Source of the DNA: Saccostrea echinata
Lineage: Eukaryota
Direction of reading: 5' to 3'
DNA length: 64,000 bases
NCBI RefSeq assembly: GCF_033153115.1
Contig: NW_026889801.1
Coordinates: 6,200,001-6,264,000 of the forward strand
Part shown: piece after piece, positions 8,441 to 63,055 of the stretch
Layout: each line of letters starts with the position of its first letter
Position numbering within the stretch: the first letter of the stretch is position 1
The notes under the pieces: generated by a model
Told to the model about the DNA's origin: nothing
Databases searched by the model: none
Seen by the model: only the letters and a program-made list of their open reading frames with translations
Position numbers and translations under genes: made by a program

Positions 8441-9632
8441 GTGTCTTAATAACGACTTATACTAATACTTACGGCACAAGAAGTTGTAACAATAAGACTA
8501 TTATATTATATTATACTATTATCCTGCCGCCAGCCCCCCCCCCCCCCCCCAAAAAAAATACTCAAACATAAAGACATGAAATAGATTTTTTCCTTTTTAT
8601 TATCTTTCAAAACTTTTAGAAGAAGATATGCCAAATAGCTTTCTTTGTATTGTTGTTCTGGTGAAATTGCCTTTGCCCTTAACATAAGCAATTGCTATAT
8701 TCATTAGCTTGCATAGAAGTCTAAGTTATATTTCACAGTTTGAATTTGTCTTTTTGAATTCTTTTTATTCGAATTAGAAAACTGTTTTGTTTTGATCATA
8801 TTTAATTGCCAATATGTTAAAGGGATTGAACATAGATTCTAAAAACTTAGATAGTCCTCTCCTATACATAAGATCTTAAAAGCCATACAACATTTACAAA
8901 AGTATGGCTAGTAAACTCAATATATAAAAACACATAGAAAGTAAAAAAACAAAAGTAAATGGAATTGAAATAGAGAGAAGTACAAGGGTCAAAGATCATG
9001 CATATTGTCCCAACATGATAAAGGTGGCGGACCACAATAAAGAACATCAAAACAATGTAAACAAATACAATACAAAAGGATGTCAAAAATTTAAGNNNNN
9101 NNNNNNNNNNNNNNNNNNNNNNNNNNNNNNNNNNNNNNNNNNNNNNNNNNNNNNNNNNNNNNNNNNNNNNNNNNNNNNNNNNNNNNNNNNNNNNNNNNNN
9201 NNNNNNNNNNNNNNNNNNNNNNNNNNNNNNNNNNNNNNNNNNNNNNNNGTCAAGTGCTCTTGTGCTGGTCATAGCTCTATTAAATTATATTCTACTGAAA
9301 GAAGTTATACTACTTTGCCAACTTTTTAAAGCAAATATAAAACGTGAAGTTGCTTTAGAAATTTCACGTTATTATTCGTGCGCCGTAAAGCGATANNNNN
9401 NNNNNNNNNNNNNNNNNNNNNNNNNNNNNNNNNNNNNNNNNNNNNNNNNNNNNNNNNNNNNNNNNNNNNNNNNNNNNNNNNNNNNNNNNNNNNNNNNNNN
9501 NNNNNNNNNNNNNNNNNNNNNNNNNNNNNNNNNNNNNNNNNNNNNNNNAACGTAAGGAAAGTTTAAGAAAGCAGTGTTGATTTTTGTTCCCTGTAGTCAA
9601 CTTGTCCACGATTTTACCGGACAACCCTCGTA

Positions 9633-10941: not shown

Positions 10942-11993
10942 ATGAAGAAATATATTCTAATTACTTTTTCTTTTATAGTGTATAAATTTGCTCTTTCCAC
11001 CAATCACAGGTAAAAACAGTTATTTCAATTGTTTTGCATTTTCTGAAATTGATTTCTATTTTATCAATTTCAGGTAATTCATCATGATTAATTTTAAATT
11101 TCTTTAGTCGTCAGATATCTCTTTGCTATGCAGGATATTTCTGGAGCAAACAAAATGCAACATGTGAAAGTAGGTCATTTTTGTTTTCATTATTATTGGA
11201 ATTTTGTCTCAGTGTTTTTCTTGGCTTTTTAACAATACTGAATTTCTTTCTTAATATATAGAGTGTCCTGTTGGTTACCATAATATAAACTGCTCTGAAA
11301 AGTGCAAATATCCTAGCTTTGGAGAAGATTGTCAGGGCGGGTGCAAATGTAGAAAAAATCTATGTGATTTTGTACTAGGATGCCTTGAACAGAGAAGTAA
11401 AGATACAAGACTTTTTTTTGTAATTATACCGGTTATACATGTACATGTATAATGAAAAATACTATATTTATCACTTACCTTTTTTTTTAGCTAAAAGGTA
11501 TTTTGGAACAACTATCGTATCTGATAACACTGTGAGTACCAAAGAACTAACAATACAAACAGCCAAGATGATAAGTACAGAAAAAGCGCATCAGACTAAA
11601 GCAGACTTCATTTTGTACGGTATTTTTATCTTAGTGGGAGTTTTCGTGATATTGTTTGGTGTTTTTGTCGCTACTTATCTTTATAAACAATGCTTTCGAA
11701 AAAGGCCTACTAGCAATAGATACGGCACAGTCGAATTAACTGCCATTGACAGGTACAAAGAACTGGAAAATCAGAAAATTGTGATAAATGATTCAAGTGA
11801 AAATATGTCACCAGATCCTGTCTATCTCGATCCAATTTGTGTTGAGCCACCATTTAATAACTCTGAATCAGACCAATCGTCATTGCAGAAAGCAAGTGTA
11901 TATCTAGAGGTAATCCACGGTACCAGTAGTGAGGAATCATTGCCTTCTGATGTTGAAAACTCTCCTACTGGTTATGTTGATGTCATACAGTAA
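10942..11993 (+). CDS. Small type-I membrane receptor A: EGF-like (MEGF10/SREC-type) ectodomain, TM helix, tyrosine-motif tail (~255 aa)
   Basis: Exons 10942-11009 (signal-like MKKYILITFSFIVYKFALS), 11108-11169 (CYAGYFWSKQNATCE), 11262-11396 (CPVGYHNINCSEKCKYPSFGEDCQGGCKCRKNLCDFVLGC) and 11491-11993 (stalk, TM FILYGIFILVGVFVILFGVFVATYLY, tail). All introns are GT-AG and the exons join in frame. AATAAA at about 12047. Confidence 0.85.
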
Positions 11994-15103: not shown

Positions 15104-17448
15104 CTATAGTTCAGCGGATGCCAAGTAGTAAACTGCTTGTCTTATGCGCATTTTTATACTTTCTGGCAATTTTGAAGAACAATCTGGAAGTTCTACATTT
15201 GCTGTCCTCATTTCTTCTTTTTTATGAACAGCTGCAATCAGATCGTCAAGTTCTGTCTCCATAATATCTGTATCGTGATTATTTAAGATTTTTAAAACAT
15301 GAATATATTGAGCACAGCACTGTTCCTTCGCACTAGTTTTATCGTCTGCTACTTTCTCAGGATTAACTCCGTACAAAATAAGAATAATCAATCTTGCACA
15401 ACATTCCAATTCACCTAATGAAGATTGTACCTGCAAATGCTTTACTGCATTGTAAACTGGGGAACATCCATCTAAATTCAATGTGGAGACATTAACATCT
15501 TTACATTCAAGAAGTGTTAAAATGCATAATAATCTACTGTATCTCGGTTGTTTTGCAGCAATGTTTAGAACGGACTCTCCATCATTATCGTCATTATTTA
15601 ATATTCGCTGACTTTTTTTTCCATCTAAGAGAATCTTCAAAGTTTTTGCACATATTTCATCGGTGTTCTCTGATTTTAGGCAATGATGAAAAACGGTGGC
15701 TCCATTTCTATCCTTATATTTAACCTCTGCTTTGTTTTCAACTAGCTCTTTAACTACTGCTGTTCTTTCTTGTTTTTGCTGCACAGCTAACATTAACGGC
15801 GACATATTAAGATTGTTGCGTGCATTGATATTTGCTTTATCTTTACTCAATTTTACGACTGCTTCTGCCACAGTGCTGTCGGATCTCTCTGACATAATCA
15901 AAAGATGCAAAACTGTGTTCTTTTCTTCATCCTTAAACTCGAGAACTCGTTTCTTTATTTCTTCCATATTATTAAAAAGCATTCCATTCAGTCTTGATAC
16001 TATATTCTCACTTTTAGAACAACATTCGCCATACAAAGAAAGATAAAATTGAAAGTCAGTATTGATTTTATGTTTGCTAAGGATGCAAAACATTTTATCA
16101 ACTAAATAATGATGATTGTTAAGGCTAGCCCAGAACAAAACGGGTAGTTTCACGTTAGAACCCTCATTTTGCAGAGAGAAGAAACTTTTAGTGTCTTTGT
16201 CTCCTTTCTTTTCTAGTTCTTCACAAAAGCAATCTGAAAAAGGTTTCAATTTAAAAACGTTACAGCCGAAAATTTTCGAAAATCTTTTATTAAATGATTC
16301 ATATAAAAATCTCAAGGCAAGTTTTGATATTTGATCCTTTCTCAAAGAAGTGTATTCCTGAGCTTGAATCACATCGAAAGGAAACAAAGGAATGACTTTT
16401 TCGAAGAAATTTTCACAAAAGTAAGCCCCTACTGCCTCATAAACACTGTCGTGTACGAATTTAAACCCTCCTCCTTCGACTGCCATGAAAAATGAACCCG
16501 ACAAGTGCTGCGCATACCTTTTTAAATCCTTGAAATCTAAAGGGCTGAAACTATTAATAAGATCTGTTGATACTGCATTTATAAATTGCCTGCATGCAAC
16601 TTCGCTTTCTAGATTTAACTTTGCATGTGGATCTTGTGTCTTTAAATGCCATTCATACAGGAAAAGGACAAAGAAGAGGGTTTTGGTTTTAGAGGTTTGG
16701 TCGTTATGAACTTCATCTTCAATTTGAATTTTGAGAAATTCAATTGGATGTGAAAAAAATTTAGCACCACGCCTTCTGTATTCCTCTTTACATGCGTATA
16801 AATGGGCACAAAGGGGAAATCCTATAGGCCCCACCGCTTTAAATATATTTGTTCTGAAGTCACGACAATCACCTGGTGGTGAACGCATATGTTTTACTTT
16901 CTCTGCAAACTCAATTTGTTTTTGAAAGATTTCATTTTTTTCTTCGTCGGTTAAAGGATATTTATTTACATATTTCCTATAAGTATCATTAAATACAGGC
17001 GTTATCCTTTTCATAAAGTGACATGCATTTTCAATGACATTTTCTCGAGCAGTAATGATGAGACGCAACTCAATCATAGACTCTTCTTGTGAATTTTGTG
17101 GTCCTTGCTTTAGATAGTTTTCATATATTCTATCAAACCCCTGCCACCAATTTTCTAAATCGTAATTATCAGTTCCATAAAATACATTATCGATAAAGAC
17201 GACAGTCTTTTTATCTGCATTTAAAAGAGTAAATTCTTCCCATGATCCAAATTTTCGTAAATCCCAATTTTCCTTTTCTGCTTCGAATAGCATGTGTATT
17301 GCAGCATTCGTTTTCCCACAACCCGGAGCTCCACTCATAATGACAATATTGTATTTATCCAAGCATAATTTGGCAGATTTGTACATTTCAGTTTCAACGA
17401 AGTAGCGATTGAAAGTCTTGTAGCTTTTCATATATTTTTTCGTCTCAT
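15104..17448 (-). CDS. Terminal exon encoding the STAND-class P-loop NTPase plus ankyrin repeats
   Basis: 775-aa ORF with Walker A IVIMSGAPGCGKT, Walker B VVFIDNVF, sensor-1 LIITAR, GxP motif IGFPLC and winged-helix FKFVHDSVYE. About 5 ankyrin repeats follow (NTVLHLLI, MSPLMLAV, ATVFHHCL, ESVLNIAA, CSPVYNAV). Acceptor tttcag at 17449. Confidence 0.9.
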
Positions 17449-20400
17449 CTGAAATAAATTTGAGAGTAAAGTGATTATAATTAACTTAAATACTACCAAA
17501 ATTTCAAATACCCTTAAAATATATGTAAAAATGCATTTTGTTTGTTTGTTTGTTTGTTTGTTGTTTAACATCCCTCTCGAGAATTTTTCACCTATATGGA
17601 GACGCCGCCACTTGCCTGTGGAGGGCTGCAAATATAGACCTATACTGGCCAATGAGCAATGGTGCCTGCACCTATTGTGACACGGGGCCTCGGTTTATAC
17701 AATCTCCACGTCCCCTAGTGGGATTCGAACCCGCGACTTAAGGATTAACTCCTTACCTCGCAAGCTTAGAGCAAACGCTCTAACCACTGCGCCCCGCGGG
17801 GGACGGTTTTTTATTTAAAACAATTGAATTTACTCTATGTAATAAAACTTTCAAAAAATGTAATCTTTTCTGGCCCAATGGCCCAAAGAATAAGATTTTT
17901 CAAAGATGTCATGAAATTTTCACTAATTCTTAATAATCTCTCCCCTGAAAGAGGTCGTTGCTCTTCATGTTAACAAAATTAAATTTAATTCATATTGACC
18001 TAGTGGTTTTGGAGAAGAAGTTGAAAGTGTGAAAAGTTTACAGACAACTCACGACAGGCAGACAGACGTCGGAAAACTTTCGATCAGAAAACTCACTTAA
18101 GCCTACAGCTCAGATGAGCTAAAACATCTTCACTTCAAATTGTCTGAATACTATTTGCTCTTAAAATTCATTGTATTTATATTTTGAAACTAACCTATGT
18201 TTTCTTCTGCTAACTCTTCCTTTGTCTTTTGCACTATGAATGCTAAGAATTGCAAATTTAAAAGTTCGTTGGTTACAATATTTATTATGTCACACACCAA
18301 GGAAATATACATTTCCATTACACTAACCCGTTTCAAAAACTTATAAAATGTATCCTTCATCCTCTATTTCAATTTGTCTTTATACAATTAAACACATTCC
18401 AAAGAAATTCGGGAAAAAAAATTTGTTCAATCAAATTCTTACTATATTTATCTGTTGCTGTTCCCATTTTTATTTGTCGTCTTGTCATTTTGTCTGGAAA
18501 TGTAAACATTTACACAGTTAACTTAATCACAAAATTAATGAGGGAAATGTAAAAATGAAACAGAATTTTGTATGAGAAATATGGGTTAATTATATTATAT
18601 TTGATTTAACTCATTATTTAAATACTTGCCCTCTAAATCATGCACAACTAAGGGTTTCATTTCCTCTACAAGATAATTAGAAATACATCATTTATTTCAC
18701 CATTTTTCCACAACTAAATCATTGAGATCTTATCATTTCCTTATTGCATAGTTTTAAAGATTAAAAAAACTTCTTTTTTCATTTTTCATTCTTTTTTCAT
18801 TTTTCTTACTTTAATCCTTAGTTTTCAATGACATTCTACATTCAATATTATAAAAATAACCATAAAAAAATTAAAATATGCATAAATACCTATTTCAGAT
18901 TTCGTTTTTTCTTTAGGTTCGTCGGTTTCTTTTTCAGAACCTGTTGCTCGTTTTTTTCGATTTTTCCTCCTTCCTATTTTACACAAAAGTAAACATGTAA
19001 GTAAGTGTGTTTTTTTCTTTGTACAAGAGCAGTAGCTTGAAAACATTTTCTCAATGAGGAGGTATTAAAACTGAATTTGAGATAATTATTGATAGGCTGA
19101 TTACATTAATAAATGACCAGTAAAAGTATGTAATATTTACGCCATAAAAAGGTGAGAAGTAAAGGTATGGCAACCAGTAGAATAATTCCAATAACTGTGA
19201 GGGTAATCCATAATGCCCTGTGAAATATGGGGAACAATTTTTATTTCTATTTAATTCATTTTTAATCAGTTTTAGTTAATTCACATGTGGCATTAATTCA
19301 ATCAAAATCTTACGAAATTTTATTGTCAGTTTCACTGTTCGGCAAGAAATTACTAGGTGATGTACTGCGGCTTCCAGCAGAGGAAATTTCGTTAGTAGTC
19401 GTGTTTGTCAAGACTGAGGGGTGTTTATAACACGCCTGATCTAAAATAGGAATAGAGTTTAACGATTTATGAATAAATACATTTGTTCTTTTTTTTAATA
19501 GCTAATTACCATTTGTCATGATACTTCATGTCCTCCTTCACTGTTTGAGAATAACAACAAACATATTGTGCATTGAAAGTATAAAAAGACCCATCAATGA
19601 TTTCTCAAAATCATGCGCTCGTCATTAAAATGTACACTAAAATTCGTCTGGTTATGCACTTAAATGTCATATTCGAGAATGTAATCCTGTAATTATATAA
19701 AATCTCAAAAAGTCATATAAATAATACATATAATTTATAAATGGAGTTATTACAAACAAAAGCTATGTTCTTACATAAATAAGCTTCAGTTGAACTGTAT
19801 CTTGTTGGACAAGGTGGGTCTAAAACTGTACAATCAGTCTGGTATTGATCTTGTATTCTCGCACCATCGACGTTAAATTCTGCACAATAACCTAAAACCC
19901 ACATAAAACATTTGAATTGGAACATAACAAAAATATATACTTTTCAAATGAACATGAGTAAGATAATTGAATATCGCAANNNNNNNNNNNNNNNNNNNNN
20001 NNNNNNNNNNNNNNNNNNNNNNNNNNNNNNNNNNNNNNNNNNNNNNNNNNNNNNNNNNNNNNNNNNNNNNNNNNNNNNNNNNNNNNNNNNNNNNNNNNNN
20101 NNNNNNNNNNNNNNNNNNNNNNNNNNNNNNNNNNNNNNNNNNNNNNNNNNNNNNNNNNNNNNNNNNNNNNNNNNNNNNNNNNNNNNNNNNNNNNNNNNNN
20201 NNNNNNNNNNNNNNNNNNNNNNNNNNNNNNNNNNNNNNNNNNNNGCTTGCGACATGTTTTTACCATTAATTTTTCTTTCTGGGGCGCACACCTCGATAGA
20301 TTGATTCCTGAAAACATTAATAACGCAATGATATTTGAACTTTTCTGGAACAGCACAACTTTGGTTCTTTGCATGATATGGACAATTTTTTTCTTTGGCA

Positions 20401-20712
20401 GCCTCTTCCATTTCATTCTTGTTACGAGGACAGGTTTCGACTATCTGCATAGTTTCCAGTGACTTGGAGCAATGTCTATCATCAAGGAAAAGACCATCCT
20501 AAAGAAATGTATTTGTAACAGATTACTCTAACTCTCATAATAAAACCATACAAATGTCTGTAAATTTCAAAGTAAAAATCCATTGTCCCAAATTCAGAAA
20601 GAAAAAAAAATTATCTTAACATCTTTAAAGCATATTTACTGCACAATACCTTCACATAAAGTAACAGGATGACAGCAGAAAACCACTGTTTGTGTTGCAT
20701 GGTGTTTACCAT
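15104..20712 (-). CDS. Transmembrane STAND-NTPase/ankyrin receptor (~1060 aa): signal peptide, Cys-rich ectodomain, S/T stalk, TM, nSTAND3-like NTPase, ankyrin repeats
   Basis: Exons 20712-20650, 20498-20264, 19891-19775, 19440-19314, 19217-19141 (TM ALWITLTVIGIILLVAIPLLLTFLW), 18973-18890 (RRRKNRKKR), 18665-18630 (GC donor), 18493-18443, 18242-18195 and 17448-15104 total 3183 nt and join in frame. A 12-nt micro-exon near 18329-18340 is possible. Confidence 0.75.
17540..17800 (-). mobile_element. tRNA-derived SINE
   Basis: On the minus strand: GGCGCAGTGGTTAGAGCG (A box) and GGGTTCGAATCCC (B box), with 3' tail ...GTGAAAAATTCTCGAGAGGGATGTTAAACAAC(AAAC)n. The same tail occurs at 45385-45420. 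Confidence 0.75.
17830..18125 (+). mobile_element. HINE/Helentron-like fragment
   Basis: ggttttggagaagaagttgaaagtgtgaaaagtttacagac...gatcagaaaactcact...agctcagatgagctaaaa terminal hairpin. Related ends occur at about 24400-24510 and 27018-27070. Confidence 0.6.
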
Positions 20713-52832: not shown

Positions 52833-53200
52833 CATATACTTCTAGTTTTTTATTTAAAAAAAATTGATATTGTGCCTAACTTTTCCGACATAGGGGATAG
52901 GCAAGCATGTATAATACTTTGCAAAGTGGGTTATTTACCCAAAATCAGTTGCTACAGTACATAATTAAAAAAGCATAAACTTCTGATGATAATATGTACA
53001 TGTGAGAACCTGAAGGAAAAAGAAAAACTCGGCGCGTATATACCAATAAACAACTATAATGTTCATATGGAGTGTCCTTTCTGATAAAGTTTATTTAATA
53101 AAATAAAATCTGCGAGAAAGGAAAGTACATGTATATATACATCATTTGATTGAAAAATATTTTACAGAAAGTAACATAAGAAAAAAATTCTTTAACCAAG

Positions 53201-56200
53201 ATGTTCAGATGCCAGAAAAAGTTCAGTAACGGCAGCATCTGTAATGGAAACCTGGCAGCAGGATTCAAGTACTGTCCCACCTGTGGCACACGTGTGCCAG
53301 AAAGCAGGCAGGGATCTGACAAATTCGAGGAGGAGAGTATACCCTACGAAGCAGACAAGTGTAAGCTATGCTTATTCTTTCTCGTTTTAGAATTAACACT
53401 CTTGTTAAGAAAATGTCCTTATAATTTGACATAGTTTCCACCAGGTAGACGATAGAAGGAAAGAAATAAACTTTTGAAGGTTTACAAATACATGTCTCAT
53501 GTATGACAGATACTTCAGTTTATTAAATGATAAAATACAAAAGCTCACATCGTAAATCTACGTGTAGTGAATTCTAATTTAGACATCGGTATAGACTTCA
53601 ACAATTAAATTTGATTCAAGCACTTTGTCTCCTTTGTTCATTTATTTAGCCGTTCCAGAGACCCTGAAGACAGAAATGAAAAAACAGGAAGATCCTGGTG
53701 GTGGCAAAGACAGTGAGACGCTATCAAAAGCGAACATTGATTGCACAACCCAGACAGTTAAAAAAGCATCAAAAAGTTTCACCGAAAAGAAAGATATGCA
53801 AGATGGAATGGTTAATACGGAAAATGTAACAACAAAAGAAGAAATCACTGCAGATATCTCTCAAAATATGAGAGATGATTCAAAGACAGAGAAAGACCCC
53901 AAAAAAGAATTGAAAGTAGTTCTGTACATTGACAAAAATGGCAATGAATCAATGCAGGAGATACGACAACATACAGAGACTGAGAAAAAAGATCAAAATG
54001 AAAGACCAAAAGGACAAAACCTTATAAAAGAATCTGAACTCATGACAGACATTGGTCAGAAAAAATCGACAGAACAAAGTGAGCCCCTAGATATTCCAAT
54101 CCAAGATAGTGACTTTGAATGCTCTAAAGATGAGGAAAAAGTAAAAGAATCTCAAGAAACAAGAGAGAGAGGGAATAGAGGATCAACTATTGAAGAGGAA
54201 TCTGCAGCTACCAACATTTTGAATTCAATGTCATCAGGAAAAGGAGCTGAAGATGACGAGAAAGGGAAAATTACTGAAAAGAAAGACGGTGAAAACAACC
54301 GAGATGGTAAGCAAAGAAACACACTGTCTGGGGGTACCAGTGACCTGTCAAACCAGGAAAAAGTAAAGGCAGATAAAGTCAACAAAAGCATCACTGGAAA
54401 AGAAGGAAATGAAAACCTCACTGGAAAAGAAGGAAAAGAAAACATCACTGGAAAAGAAGGAAAAGAAAACATCATTGGAAAAGAAGGAAATGAAAACCTC
54501 ACTGGAAAAGAAGGAAAAGAAAACATCACTGGAAAAGAAGGAAAAGAAAAAATCACTGGAAAAGAAGGAAAAGAAAATGGCCAAGTTCCGAAGCAGCCAG
54601 AAAACACAGAAAAACCCGTGAAAACAGAGAAAGAATCCGAAAACCAACAAAGAAGATGCGGAGGCAGTCAAAGTACTGGACAAAATGAAAAGTGTCAACC
54701 AGAAATGGCTAAAAAGAAGGTGTGTAGCTATTGAAATACTTCTAAATTTTATTTTAGAGAATTTGGTTTCTTTCACGAATAACATTTGAACGATCTTTGA
54801 CAATTTTTGTTGAACAGGTGGTAAAGGTGATATTCCATGCGTTCTTGGCACCAAACGTGACAATGAATCTTCAAAAGGACAAGATCTTTGTTGTATTTGG
54901 TCCTCCTTGTGGTGACTGGGAGACAAAAAAGGGAGAAGTTTTAAAAACGACAGAATTCCAAGTGTAAGTACATATATGTACAAGTTTATGAAAAAAATGT
55001 AAGCATTTTAAACATTTCATATTTTAGGTTTTAAACAGCCATTGTTCATATTGTTCTTTTATTCACTGTTTATTATCTATTTCATTAGTATTAAAAGCAC
55101 TAGGATTTATAATGAAGTATTTCAATAATTGACTCAATTGTTCCTTCTTCATGTGAATAATGCGCATTTTAAATACATGTAGCTAGATTTCCACAATGTT
55201 AGTAGGTGAATAACTATTGAATAAATCGTAAGTAACTCACATAATAGTGATATTTTTTTTCTGAAATCCAATGTAAGTGACGAAGAATAACAATAGGTTC
55301 ATATTTAAAATCATTTCTAAACGTTAATATTTAAAAAAACAATTTATAGTTTAATCTGTAATAAATTATTCTTTAAATACAGGAAAAATCATCCCATACG
55401 TCTTAAGGCAACAGCAATGATAGAAAAAGATTTATTGAAAGAACCATTGAGATACGCATACAAGTTGCAACACCAAGAAAAAAATGTCCAGGAAATCGTT
55501 ACAGAATCAGAATTTTACCTTAACAGTTATGAACCTTATAAACGCAAATATCGTCTGCTGGACATTCCATTGGATGCTGTAGGTATGCACAAATAAGCGC
55601 GTGCGTTTGAGAGAGAGAGATAAAAAACAGAGAGGAGCATCAATATTTTACAGCAGATATGTCAAATTTGGAGTACAGTTTCCATTGTGCAGTATTTTGC
55701 GCAGTATTTAAGAGATGAATATAATTTTTGAGAATTCATGAGGACATGAACTACAACGCTTCACGCCTGCATATTTCATGAAGCGCGTCAGCGCTACGTG
55801 ATAAATATGCAGGCGTGAAGTGTTGTAGTTCAGTTACTTCATGAATTCTCAAAAATTAAATTCATATCTTATATCTGCATTATTTTTCGGATGACTTGCT
55901 ACATATTTTTGTCATTCAACAATCATTTTTTTTTTTTAAAAGTTTACACTGTTCTTTGACTTCACTCATATAATAATGGAAATATTTTTATTCATCCTAC
56001 AGTAGTTCATGAGACCATGAACTTTTTCTAATTTGCAAGGAATCTTAAGGAAAAATATTTGGAAATGTAAATGTATTGAAATAAAGTATATTTACGCTTT
56101 TAAAGCAATTATTTCAACATAATTTATAAAAATGAGCAAAATCTTTAAAAAAAAAATCGGGAGCAAAAAAAAATCTTCATTTAAAAAGAAAATGGATTTT

Positions 56201-59498: not shown

Positions 59499-60826
59499 CA
59501 AAAACTAAGTACCAAAATAAATCGTTTTCGTTGGGCTCGATGTTTATGTACATGTATGCATAATAAACGAAAGAAAACATCGATGGGGTAAACAGGTCTC
59601 AATAACATCAACAGACATTTCATGTATACCGCTTTTTCCGAGTACCCGGGTACTCGATCGGAAAATCGTCCGAGTAACCGATTATCAAATATTGNNNNNN
59701 NNNNNNNNNNNNNNNNNNNNNNNNNNNNNNNNNNNNNNNNNNNNNNNNNNNNNNNNNNNNNNNNNNNNNNNNNNNNNNNNNNNNNNNNNNNNNNNNNNNN
59801 NNNNNNNNNNNNNNNNNNNNNNNNNNNACATCTATCGGGATATAAATACGGGTTGGTCACGTGATCAAATTCCATAGGCTTTATGGTAAATTTGATCTCG
59901 TACCGAACAGTATTTATATCCCTATAGATGTTTAAAAATGATACTTCTTACCTATATTTACATTTGTGACTTATTCATATTTTATATTTGCCTTTTATAA
60001 TTTTTCACGTGTGAAGTATTTTATTTTTCAAACTCAACGGCACGTTTTAAATCCATTGATTGCGCGTCAACCCTTTATGACGTCACTGAGAAATTACGTC
60101 GAACGTTTATGACGTGAGGAACCCGTGTTTATACGGATATAGATACACATTGCTTTCAATAGTGTCATATAAGGGGAAGCATTTGCAAATGTAAATATTC
60201 TCTTATACAAAATTATTGGTGTTCTTTTTCTGATTTAAATCAGGCTTTTATGAATCGTTTTTATTCTTCGTAACATTAATTAAAGAAATATTTACTCCAT
60301 AATTTTTAGATTAAAAAGAAGTTTAGTAACAAATAGACATTTAGTTATATAATTGCTGATCTGTGATTAATTTTTAGGATGACAAGTTATATAAATCTAT
60401 AAAGAAGCACATGTTATTGTATTGTGCTCACAAGTGACTGAAGAAATTACACCGAGTTTCGTATATTATGTTAGGAAATTGGAAAAGACTTATTACCCAA
60501 TTTACAATTTAAAAAAAAAAAACTTTTTAAATGTGAGCTCTCTGTTATTGCGCATTTTGATCAAATGTATTTCGTTTGCATCTAAATAAGAAGAGGGGGC
60601 ATTTTAATTGATAATCTAAAACTAAGTACCAAAATAAATCGTTTTCGTTGGGCTCGATGTTTATGTACATGTATGCATAATAAACGAAAGAAAACATCGA
60701 TGGGGTAAACAGGTCTCAATAACATCAACAGACATTTCATGTATACCGCTTTTTCCGAGTACCCGGGTACTCGATCGGAAAATCGTCCGAGTAACCGATT
60801 ATCAAATATTGACCGATTTGACATCC

Positions 60827-60913
<87 letters not shown>

Positions 60914-63055
60914 AGGAATCATTTTTAAACATCTATCGGGATATAAATACGGGTTGGTCACGTGATCAAATTCCATAGGCTTTATGGTAAATTTGATCTC
61001 GTACCGAACAGTATTTATATCCCTATAGATGTTTAAAAATGATACTTCTTACCTATATTTACATTTGTGACTTATTCATATTTTATATTTGCCTTTTATA
61101 ATTTTTCACGTGTGAAGTATTTTATTTTTCAAACTCAACGGCACGTTTTAAATCCATTGATTGCGCGTCAACCCTTTATGACGTCACTGAGAAATTACGT
61201 CGAACGTTTATGACGTGAGGAACCCGTGTTTATACGGATATAGATACACATTGCTTTCAATAGTGTCATATAAGGGGAAGCATTTGCAAATGTAAATATT
61301 CTCTTATACAAAATTATTGGTGTTCTTTTTCTGATTTAAATCAGGCTTTTATGAATCGTTTTTATTCTTCGTAACATTAATTAAAGAAATATTTACTCCA
61401 TAATTTTTAGATTAAAAAGAAGTTTAGTAACAAATAGACATTTAGTTATATAATTGCTGATCTGTGATTAATTTTTAGGATGACAAGTTATATAAATCTA
61501 TAAAGAAGCACATGTTATTGTATTGTGCTCACAAGTGACTGAAGAAATTACACCGAGTTTCGTATATTATGTTAGGAAATTGGAAAAGACTTATTACCCA
61601 ATTTACAATTTTAAAAAAAAAACTTTTTAAATGTGAGCTCTCTGTTATTGCGCATTTTGATCAAATGTATTTCGTTTGCATCTAAATAAGAAGAGGGGGC
61701 ATTTTAATTGATAATCTAAAACTAAGTACCAAAATAAATCGTTTTCGTTGGGCTCGATGTTTATGTACATGTATGCATAATAAACGAAAGAAAACATCGA
61801 TGGGGTAAACAGGTCTCAATAACATCAACAGACATTTCATGTATACCGCTTTTTCCGAGTACCCGGGTACTCGATCGGAAAATCGTCCGAGTAACCGATT
61901 ATCAAATATTGNNNNNNNNNNNNNNNNNNNNNNNNNNNNNNNNNNNNNNNNNNNNNNNNNNNNNNNNNNNNNNNNNNNNNNNNNNNNNNNNNNNNNNNNN
62001 NNNNNNNNNNNNNNNNNNNNNNNNNNNNNNNNNNNNNNNNNNNNNNNNNNNNNNNNACATCTATCGGGATATAAATACGGGTTGGTCACGTGATCAAATT
62101 CCATAGGCTTTATGGTAAATTTGATCTCGTACCGAACAGTATTTATATCCCTATAGATGTTTAAAAATGATACTTCTTACCTATATTTACATTTGTGACT
62201 TATTCATATTTTATATTTGCCTTTTATAATTTTTCACGTGTGAAGTATTTTATTTTTCAAACTCAACGGCACGTTTTAAATCCATTGATTGCGCGTCAAC
62301 CCTTTATGACGTCACTGAGAAATTACGTCGAACGTTTATGACGTGAGGAACCCGTGTTTATACGGATATAGATACACATTGCTTTCAATAGTGTCATATA
62401 AGGGGAAGCATTTGCAAATGTAAATATTCTCTTATACAAAATTATTGGTGTTCTTTTTCTGATTTAAATCAGGCTTTTATGAATCGTTTTTATTCTTCGT
62501 AACATTAATTAAAGAAATATTTACTCCATAATTTTTAGATTAAAAAGAAGTTTAGTAACAAATAGACATTTAGTTATATAATTGCTGATCTGTGATTAAT
62601 TTTTAGGATGACAAGTTATATAAATCTATAAAGAAGCACATGTTATTGTATTGTGCTCACAAGTGACTGAAGAAATTACACCGAGTTTCGTATATTATGT
62701 TAGGAAATTGGAAAAGACTTATTACCCAATTTACAATTTAAAAAAAAAAAACTTTTTAAATGTGAGCTCTCTGTTATTGCGCATTTTGATCAAATGTATT
62801 TCGTTTGCATCTAAATAAGAAGAGGGGGCATTTTAATTGATAATCTAAAACTAAGTACCAAAATAAATCGTTTTCGTTGGGCTCGATGTTTATGTACATG
62901 TATGCATAATAAACGAAAGAAAACATCGATGGGGTAAACAGGTCTCAATAACATCAACAGACATTTCATGTATACCGCTTTTTCCGAGTACCCGGGTACT
63001 CGATCGGAAAATCGTCCGAGTAACCGATTATCAAATATTGACCGATTTGACATCC

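Follow-up and report, generated by a model that had tools for sequence, protein, structure and literature searches.

A minus-strand gene of the oyster Saccostrea echinata (NCBI RefSeq assembly GCF_033153115.1, contig NW_026889801.1) was found in the stretch from positions 6,200,001 to 6,264,000, called the window here (64,000 nucleotides, nt). It encodes a receptor-like protein that joins an unnamed ten-cysteine domain, hereafter the head, to an nSTAND3 NTPase with ankyrin repeats, and it belongs to a large oyster family whose tails have been exchanged. We see about even chances that the protein is a type I surface receptor in which clustering of the head switches on the nSTAND3 module, so that signals would pass from the outside in. 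The exons are listed below in window positions; X1 and X3 are two runs of one study, whose RNA nature is only guessed, yet they skip the introns exactly.

20650 to 20712, minus strand: exon 1, start codon and signal-peptide-like segment (residues 1-21), from splice sites and a hydropathy peak at residues 9-20; joint 20497-20649 in X1 and X3.
20264 to 20498, minus strand: exon 2, Cys1-6, invariant P45, H78 and E90 and two N-glycosylation sequons, from splicing and alignment, with 751 relatives.
19775 to 19891, minus strand: exon 3, Cys7-9 and invariant S133, phase 1 at both ends, from splicing, alignment and a spliced contig.
19314 to 19440, minus strand: exon 4, Cys10 followed by a stalk of about 40% Ser/Thr, from the spliced reading.
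19141 to 19217, minus strand: exon 5, transmembrane helix at about residues 182-205, from hydropathy (2.85 over 19 residues) and a helix in the predicted model.
18890 to 18973, minus strand: exon 6, a linker with a basic stop-transfer stretch, phase 1-1, from splice sites and from its occurrence in P0002, a relative from S. cucullata.
18630 to 18665, minus strand: exon 6b, a linker exon of 36 nt whose presumed donor is GC; both X1 and X3 show the joint 18493-18630.
18443 to 18493, minus strand: exon 7, 51-nt linker exon, phase 1-1, from splice sites and contigs.
18195 to 18242, minus strand: exon 8, 48-nt linker exon, phase 1-1, from splice sites and contigs.
15104 to 17448, minus strand: terminal exon of 2345 nt, nSTAND3 NTPase with helical and winged-helix regions, ankyrin repeats and stop codon, from PF20720 and Ank_4; joint 17448-18195 in X1 and X3.

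The intron after exon 1 is in phase 0 and that after the stalk in phase 2. The transmembrane exon is followed by four short phase 1-1 exons and then by the terminal exon, all introns behind it being in phase 1, and the linker between membrane and NTPase comes to about 74 residues. The length of X3 record 19 would leave about 85 nt for exon 6. A 1299-nt contig of X3, with a likeness of about 90%, covers exons 2 to 4 and the beginning of the NTPase exon, with 330 nt between the aligned pieces against a total of 329 nt for the linker exons. Because of this agreement in length, a product of 1060 amino acids (aa) running from head to NTPase is the best-supported form; a shorter isoform may also be made. 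The spliced contig passes straight across the run of N in intron 2 (19980-20244), and thus no exon is concealed there. Exon 2 matches the public S. echinata model P0001 (LOC133204308) at 100%, and the spliced reading is identical to its residues 1-205. This model ends at 229 aa and loses the whole NTPase-ankyrin exon, because the donor of the 36-nt exon, GC in this genome, is read through to a stop. The last intron also contains a high-copy repeat (17473-18135, summed depth in thousands).

Three exons (20498-20264, 19891-19775 and the first part of 19440-19314) encode the head and splice in frame across two phase-1 introns with GT-AG ends; Cys1 lies at 20471-20469 and Cys10 at 19432-19430. The cysteines occupy residues 31, 44, 60, 69, 79, 92, 102, 120, 127 and 142, giving gaps of 12, 15, 8, 9, 12, 9, 17, 6 and 14. 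The original prediction, made from the sequence alone, had described this pattern, and eight of its nine gaps agree, the last being 14 and not 13. Its placing of the domain on phase-1 exons is right for both internal introns; however, as a module the domain lacks phase-1 symmetry, the intron upstream being in phase 0 and the one behind the stalk in phase 2. In metagenome-assembly loci, the internal introns occur at the same sites and in phase 1 (4 of 4), and the upstream intron is in phase 0 in all three loci that reach it. Among 273 proteins examined, 173 contain the full domain, 160 of these with exactly ten domain cysteines, and each of the ten columns is retained in 171-173 of the 173, so that the pattern is not due to chance. 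Judged by eye, P0030, P0059, P0066, P0079, P0091, P0288 and P0290 lack the exon-3 part (Cys7-9) entirely or for the most part; these members are either exon-skipped isoforms or model errors. Across 110 dereplicated heads, P45, H78, E90 and S133 are invariant, and K58 and N82 are kept in 95% and 92%. The median pairwise identity of the heads is 41% (n=122), about half of their positions being highly variable among paralogues.

No Pfam family was found for exon 2, exon 3 or P0001, which bears out the proposal that the domain fits neither EGF, Ig, C-type lectin nor LRR patterns, and a PDB sequence search with the domain gave nothing below E 1.4. The predicted model of the head is confident and has several helices; comparison of its fold, a check proposed in the original prediction, yielded no clear structural match to a described domain. 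The literature search found no paper naming the domain. The head is a real, uncatalogued ectodomain. It is quite improbable that it belongs, as a highly diverged form, to one of the cysteine-rich folds already described (TNFR, three-finger, Frizzled, Methuselah or defensin-like): its spacing contains neither CxxC nor CC, the Pfam rows shown for 63 members (25 of 71 families) include no cysteine-rich ectodomain family except one sub-threshold plant row lying on the transmembrane region, and the weak structural matches are tied with unrelated folds. The patterns of Ly6/TGF-beta receptor, Frizzled and Methuselah domains contain an adjacent CC or a terminal CN, neither of which occurs here, and the Pfam and PDB sequence searches above gave no significant match to these other ten-cysteine ectodomains. 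TNFR domains consist of tandem repeats of about 40 residues with six cysteines and a CxxCxxC core. The protein shares type I topology, a cysteine-rich ectodomain and a putative signalling tail with the TNF receptor superfamily, but it lacks the CxxCxxC core, the tandem six-cysteine repeats (all 123 long members have a single copy), a death domain and any TNFR profile match in the searches above, and its model contains several helices. The distant likeness to TNFR suggested at first therefore found no support; the TNFR fold was not among the structural matches listed for the model, where an unlisted row does not exclude a fold.

The terminal exon matched PF20720 with E 1.5e-18 (67.4 bits against a cut-off of 27.2) and Ank_4 with E 7.1e-11, the ankyrin repeats being C-terminal; this nSTAND3-ankyrin module was not stated in the original prediction. 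Walker A, Walker B and the strand with a conserved Thr are intact, and a GFPL motif (GxP-type helical) and a winged-helix FVHD motif (Phe-x-His-Asp) are present, under names which, like those of the companion NTPase motifs, we take to be the appropriate ones. Since the motifs are intact, the switch is probably live. With PF20720 above its cut-off, Walker A/B, the helical motif, the winged-helix region and C-terminal repeats, the tail belongs to the nSTAND3 clade of STAND proteins. It shares all of these parts with other ankyrin-bearing members of the clade, whereas the N-terminal slot is taken here by a secreted head and a single transmembrane helix and not by a cytosolic effector. A NOD-like receptor (NLR) in the strict sense, with NACHT and LRR, was ruled out, as the tail contains nSTAND3 and ankyrins only.

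A search with exon 2 returned 751 clusters at 50% identity (E<=0.001; 150 listed), which is not a gene count because many are single-exon fragments from many data sets. The family had been proposed to be expanded in bivalves. The expansion stands, but the host range was drawn too wide: all organism-named rows were Ostreidae (Magallana, Crassostrea, Saccostrea, Ostrea), including 22 of the 22 named among 120 listed long matches and likewise in other searches, most rows being unnamed and close relatives being ranked first, so the family may extend beyond oysters. Long members were collected by profile search among proteins of 402-2000 aa (125 matches, 120 listed). Tabulation of the tails, likewise proposed beforehand, gave nSTAND3 in 20 of the 120, ankyrins only in 3, AIG1 in 4, and FN3, NADAR and homeobox/BIR in one each, the last of which may be a fused gene model; coiled-coil and low-complexity tails also occur. 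An Ostrea edulis model contains the same fusion of head and nSTAND3. The head is single and N-terminal in all 123 long members, with a transmembrane segment behind it in 121 (160 of the 173 full domains).

Clustering of the tails of these 123 members gave groups of 54, 24, 17, 7, 4, 4 and 2, with 11 singles. The largest, represented by P0188, shares a conserved cytoplasmic domain, roughly 200 residues long, that neither Pfam nor PDB matched; it is a second unnamed domain. P0262, of the same group, has an insertion behind the transmembrane segment that consists of a Pro/Thr-rich repeat and another domain. The 17-member group of P0224 has a weak ubiquitin match (E 0.043) and a cysteine cluster that we assume to be RING-like, and its members are possible receptor-linked ubiquitin ligases. 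All SAM matches in the tails were below the cut-off (best E 0.0057), and no match was found for the two-member group, which we had presumed to be HSP70-like. Short-tailed members may in part be truncated models like P0001; since public models can stop behind the transmembrane segment, as here, NTPase-linked members are probably undercounted.

The proposal that an unnamed extracellular module has expanded greatly and become attached to different cytoplasmic domains is supported by the 751 clusters, the diversity of tails and a conflict between trees. In a tree of 122 heads, built on few columns, with the bootstrap not settled and gain indistinguishable from loss, the STAND label needs 11 changes, 6 of which are forced by well-supported branches. 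Head and NTPase trees were compared for 20 proteins (22 aligned, 2 dropped for an incomplete head). P0183 is 68% identical to P0177 and P0184 in the head and only 29% in the NTPase, which clusters with four other proteins (support 100/99). In approximately unbiased (AU) tests each tree's clade was rejected by the other tree (p 6e-116 and 9e-6), the clades having been picked after the trees were seen and several rows being transcript assemblies, possibly chimeric. As the introns flanking the domain differ in phase and all those behind the transmembrane exon are in phase 1, the mobile unit is best read as the whole cassette of signal peptide, domain, stalk and transmembrane segment, joined to new terminal exons.

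In the receptor that we propose, the ten-cysteine domain would form a compact alpha/beta recognition head, probably with five disulfides, held away from the membrane by the glycosylated stalk. Binding of an extracellular partner, either a host protein or the surface of a cell or microbe, would cluster the chains and, in this copy, free the ankyrin-capped nSTAND3 module, which would exchange ADP for ATP and oligomerise as a signalling scaffold, with defence or cell death as the most likely output. The family would have diversified by splicing of the same head cassette, via phase-1 introns, onto different terminal exons. The topology, the intron phases, the 1299-nt contig and the fusion in 20 of the 120 listed long matches and in the Ostrea edulis model support this reading, as do the NTPase motifs, the single N-terminal head with a transmembrane segment behind it in nearly all long members, and the conflict between head and NTPase trees. 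The other tails (AIG1, NADAR, FN3, BIR/homeobox) belong to classes associated with immunity or conflict in invertebrates. Several points weigh against it. Neither a ligand nor an expression pattern or phenotype was found, no effector domain can be recognised in the protein, and in many members the tail is short and without a domain. In addition, the contig joining head and NTPase belongs to a related organism with about 90% likeness, and a single study is the source of the joints.

The order of domains is a further difficulty, as in usual STAND proteins the effector sits in the N-terminal slot and sensing falls to the C-terminal repeats. The gene may instead encode an inside-out NLR, in which the ankyrins would sense a cytosolic signal, nSTAND3 would oligomerise, and the transmembrane segment and head would fill the effector slot and cluster at the membrane, either for display to other cells or to form an assembly that damages it. 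The order of effector, NTPase and repeats would fit this gene, paralogues often resemble each other less in the ankyrins than in the NTPase (for example P0176 against P0177/P0184, 51-52% versus 73-75%), and N-terminal transmembrane regions are reported on anthozoan NLRs (PMC3879445). We nevertheless find this unlikely: 103 of the 123 long members have no listed nSTAND3, or only ankyrins or other tails (P0154 excepted), yet retain the head, and a single transmembrane helix behind signal peptide and stalk is the topology of a receptor.

Sequence variation also speaks against the outside-in receptor. Over 14 groups of nearly identical proteins, differences fall on 195 of 6118 positions in the head (3.2%) and on 474 of 17355 in the cytoplasmic part (2.7%), and against X3 contigs 23 of 235 bases differ in exon 2, 12 of 113 in exon 3 and 10.5-14.9% in long pieces of the terminal exon. 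By these crude counts, which are not dN/dS, the head changes no faster than the tail in either comparison and shows no sign of hypervariability; in this the head is unlike what is expected of a pathogen-chasing receptor. This would suit a head that serves adhesion, self-recognition or co-receptor binding with one shared partner, or mainly folding and export, its cassette having been captured by cytosolic genes to reach the membrane in a role not necessarily immune. The polar residues that remain invariant or nearly so at 41% median identity (H78, E90, S133, K58, N82) and the very mixed tails, including homeobox/BIR, coiled-coil and low-complexity ones, point the same way. We hold it to be possible but doubtful, as most identifiable tails are NTPases, GTPases and conflict-type domains, and the half of the head positions that vary highly between paralogues would suffice for differing specificities.

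One earlier paper touches on the general theme: Kaur, Iyer, Burroughs and Aravind (2021, PMC8195603) drew a like inference for receptor-like Crassostrea proteins with a Cys-rich region, a transmembrane segment and TRADD-N. There, TRADD-N, often with DED or a helical region, stands between membrane and tail, whereas this gene has only a linker, with no room for it. Two TRADD-N motifs were sought without success in 417 proteins, and six locus ids from our domain matches were absent from the listed parts of the supplements, which contain accessions and TRADD-N alignments only; the paper gives the cysteine-rich region no sequence, name or fold. Because the tails overlap, it is plausible that this region is the present domain or a relative. 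Putative membrane-bound anthozoan NLRs with multiple transmembrane segments, reported in PMC3879445, likewise place a STAND NTPase behind N-terminal membrane segments; they are NACHT-LRR proteins with three to four such segments, whereas the oyster protein is single-pass, with signal peptide, folded ectodomain, nSTAND3 and ankyrins.

Elsewhere in the window, two similar plus-strand neighbours (11255-11993 and 25326-26657) each have an EGF-like cysteine exon, a transmembrane segment and a tail with tyrosine motifs; we take them to be MEGF10-like, no Pfam match being above cut-off. A CxxC-bearing stretch followed by a charged open reading frame (ORF) of 379 aa with 9-residue tandem repeats lies at 53180-54734 (plus strand), and a 165-aa ORF with a Cys/His cluster, presumably resembling a retroelement end, at 27567-28064 (plus strand). 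Seven runs of N fall within 9096-9548, 19980-20244, 28114-28527, 59695-59827 and 61912-62056.

Views of oyster immunity rest largely on named domains, and Pfam does not detect this family, although it is large and wired to immune-type switches. According to PMC3879445, the Pacific oyster has a single classical NLR versus 45 in the pearl oyster, and surface-anchored nSTAND3 proteins may be part of the oyster substitute for these. More tentatively, an undescribed disulfide-rich fold might define an oyster-restricted receptor superfamily whose head was repeatedly joined to NLR-like NTPases, immune GTPases and other effectors; its nSTAND3 members would be single-pass receptor-NLR hybrids in which extracellular binding leads straight to STAND oligomerisation, and they could stand in for the classical NLRs that are reported to be nearly absent from the Pacific oyster. 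The profile, the confident model and the list of tails now make the ligand and the direction of signalling testable.
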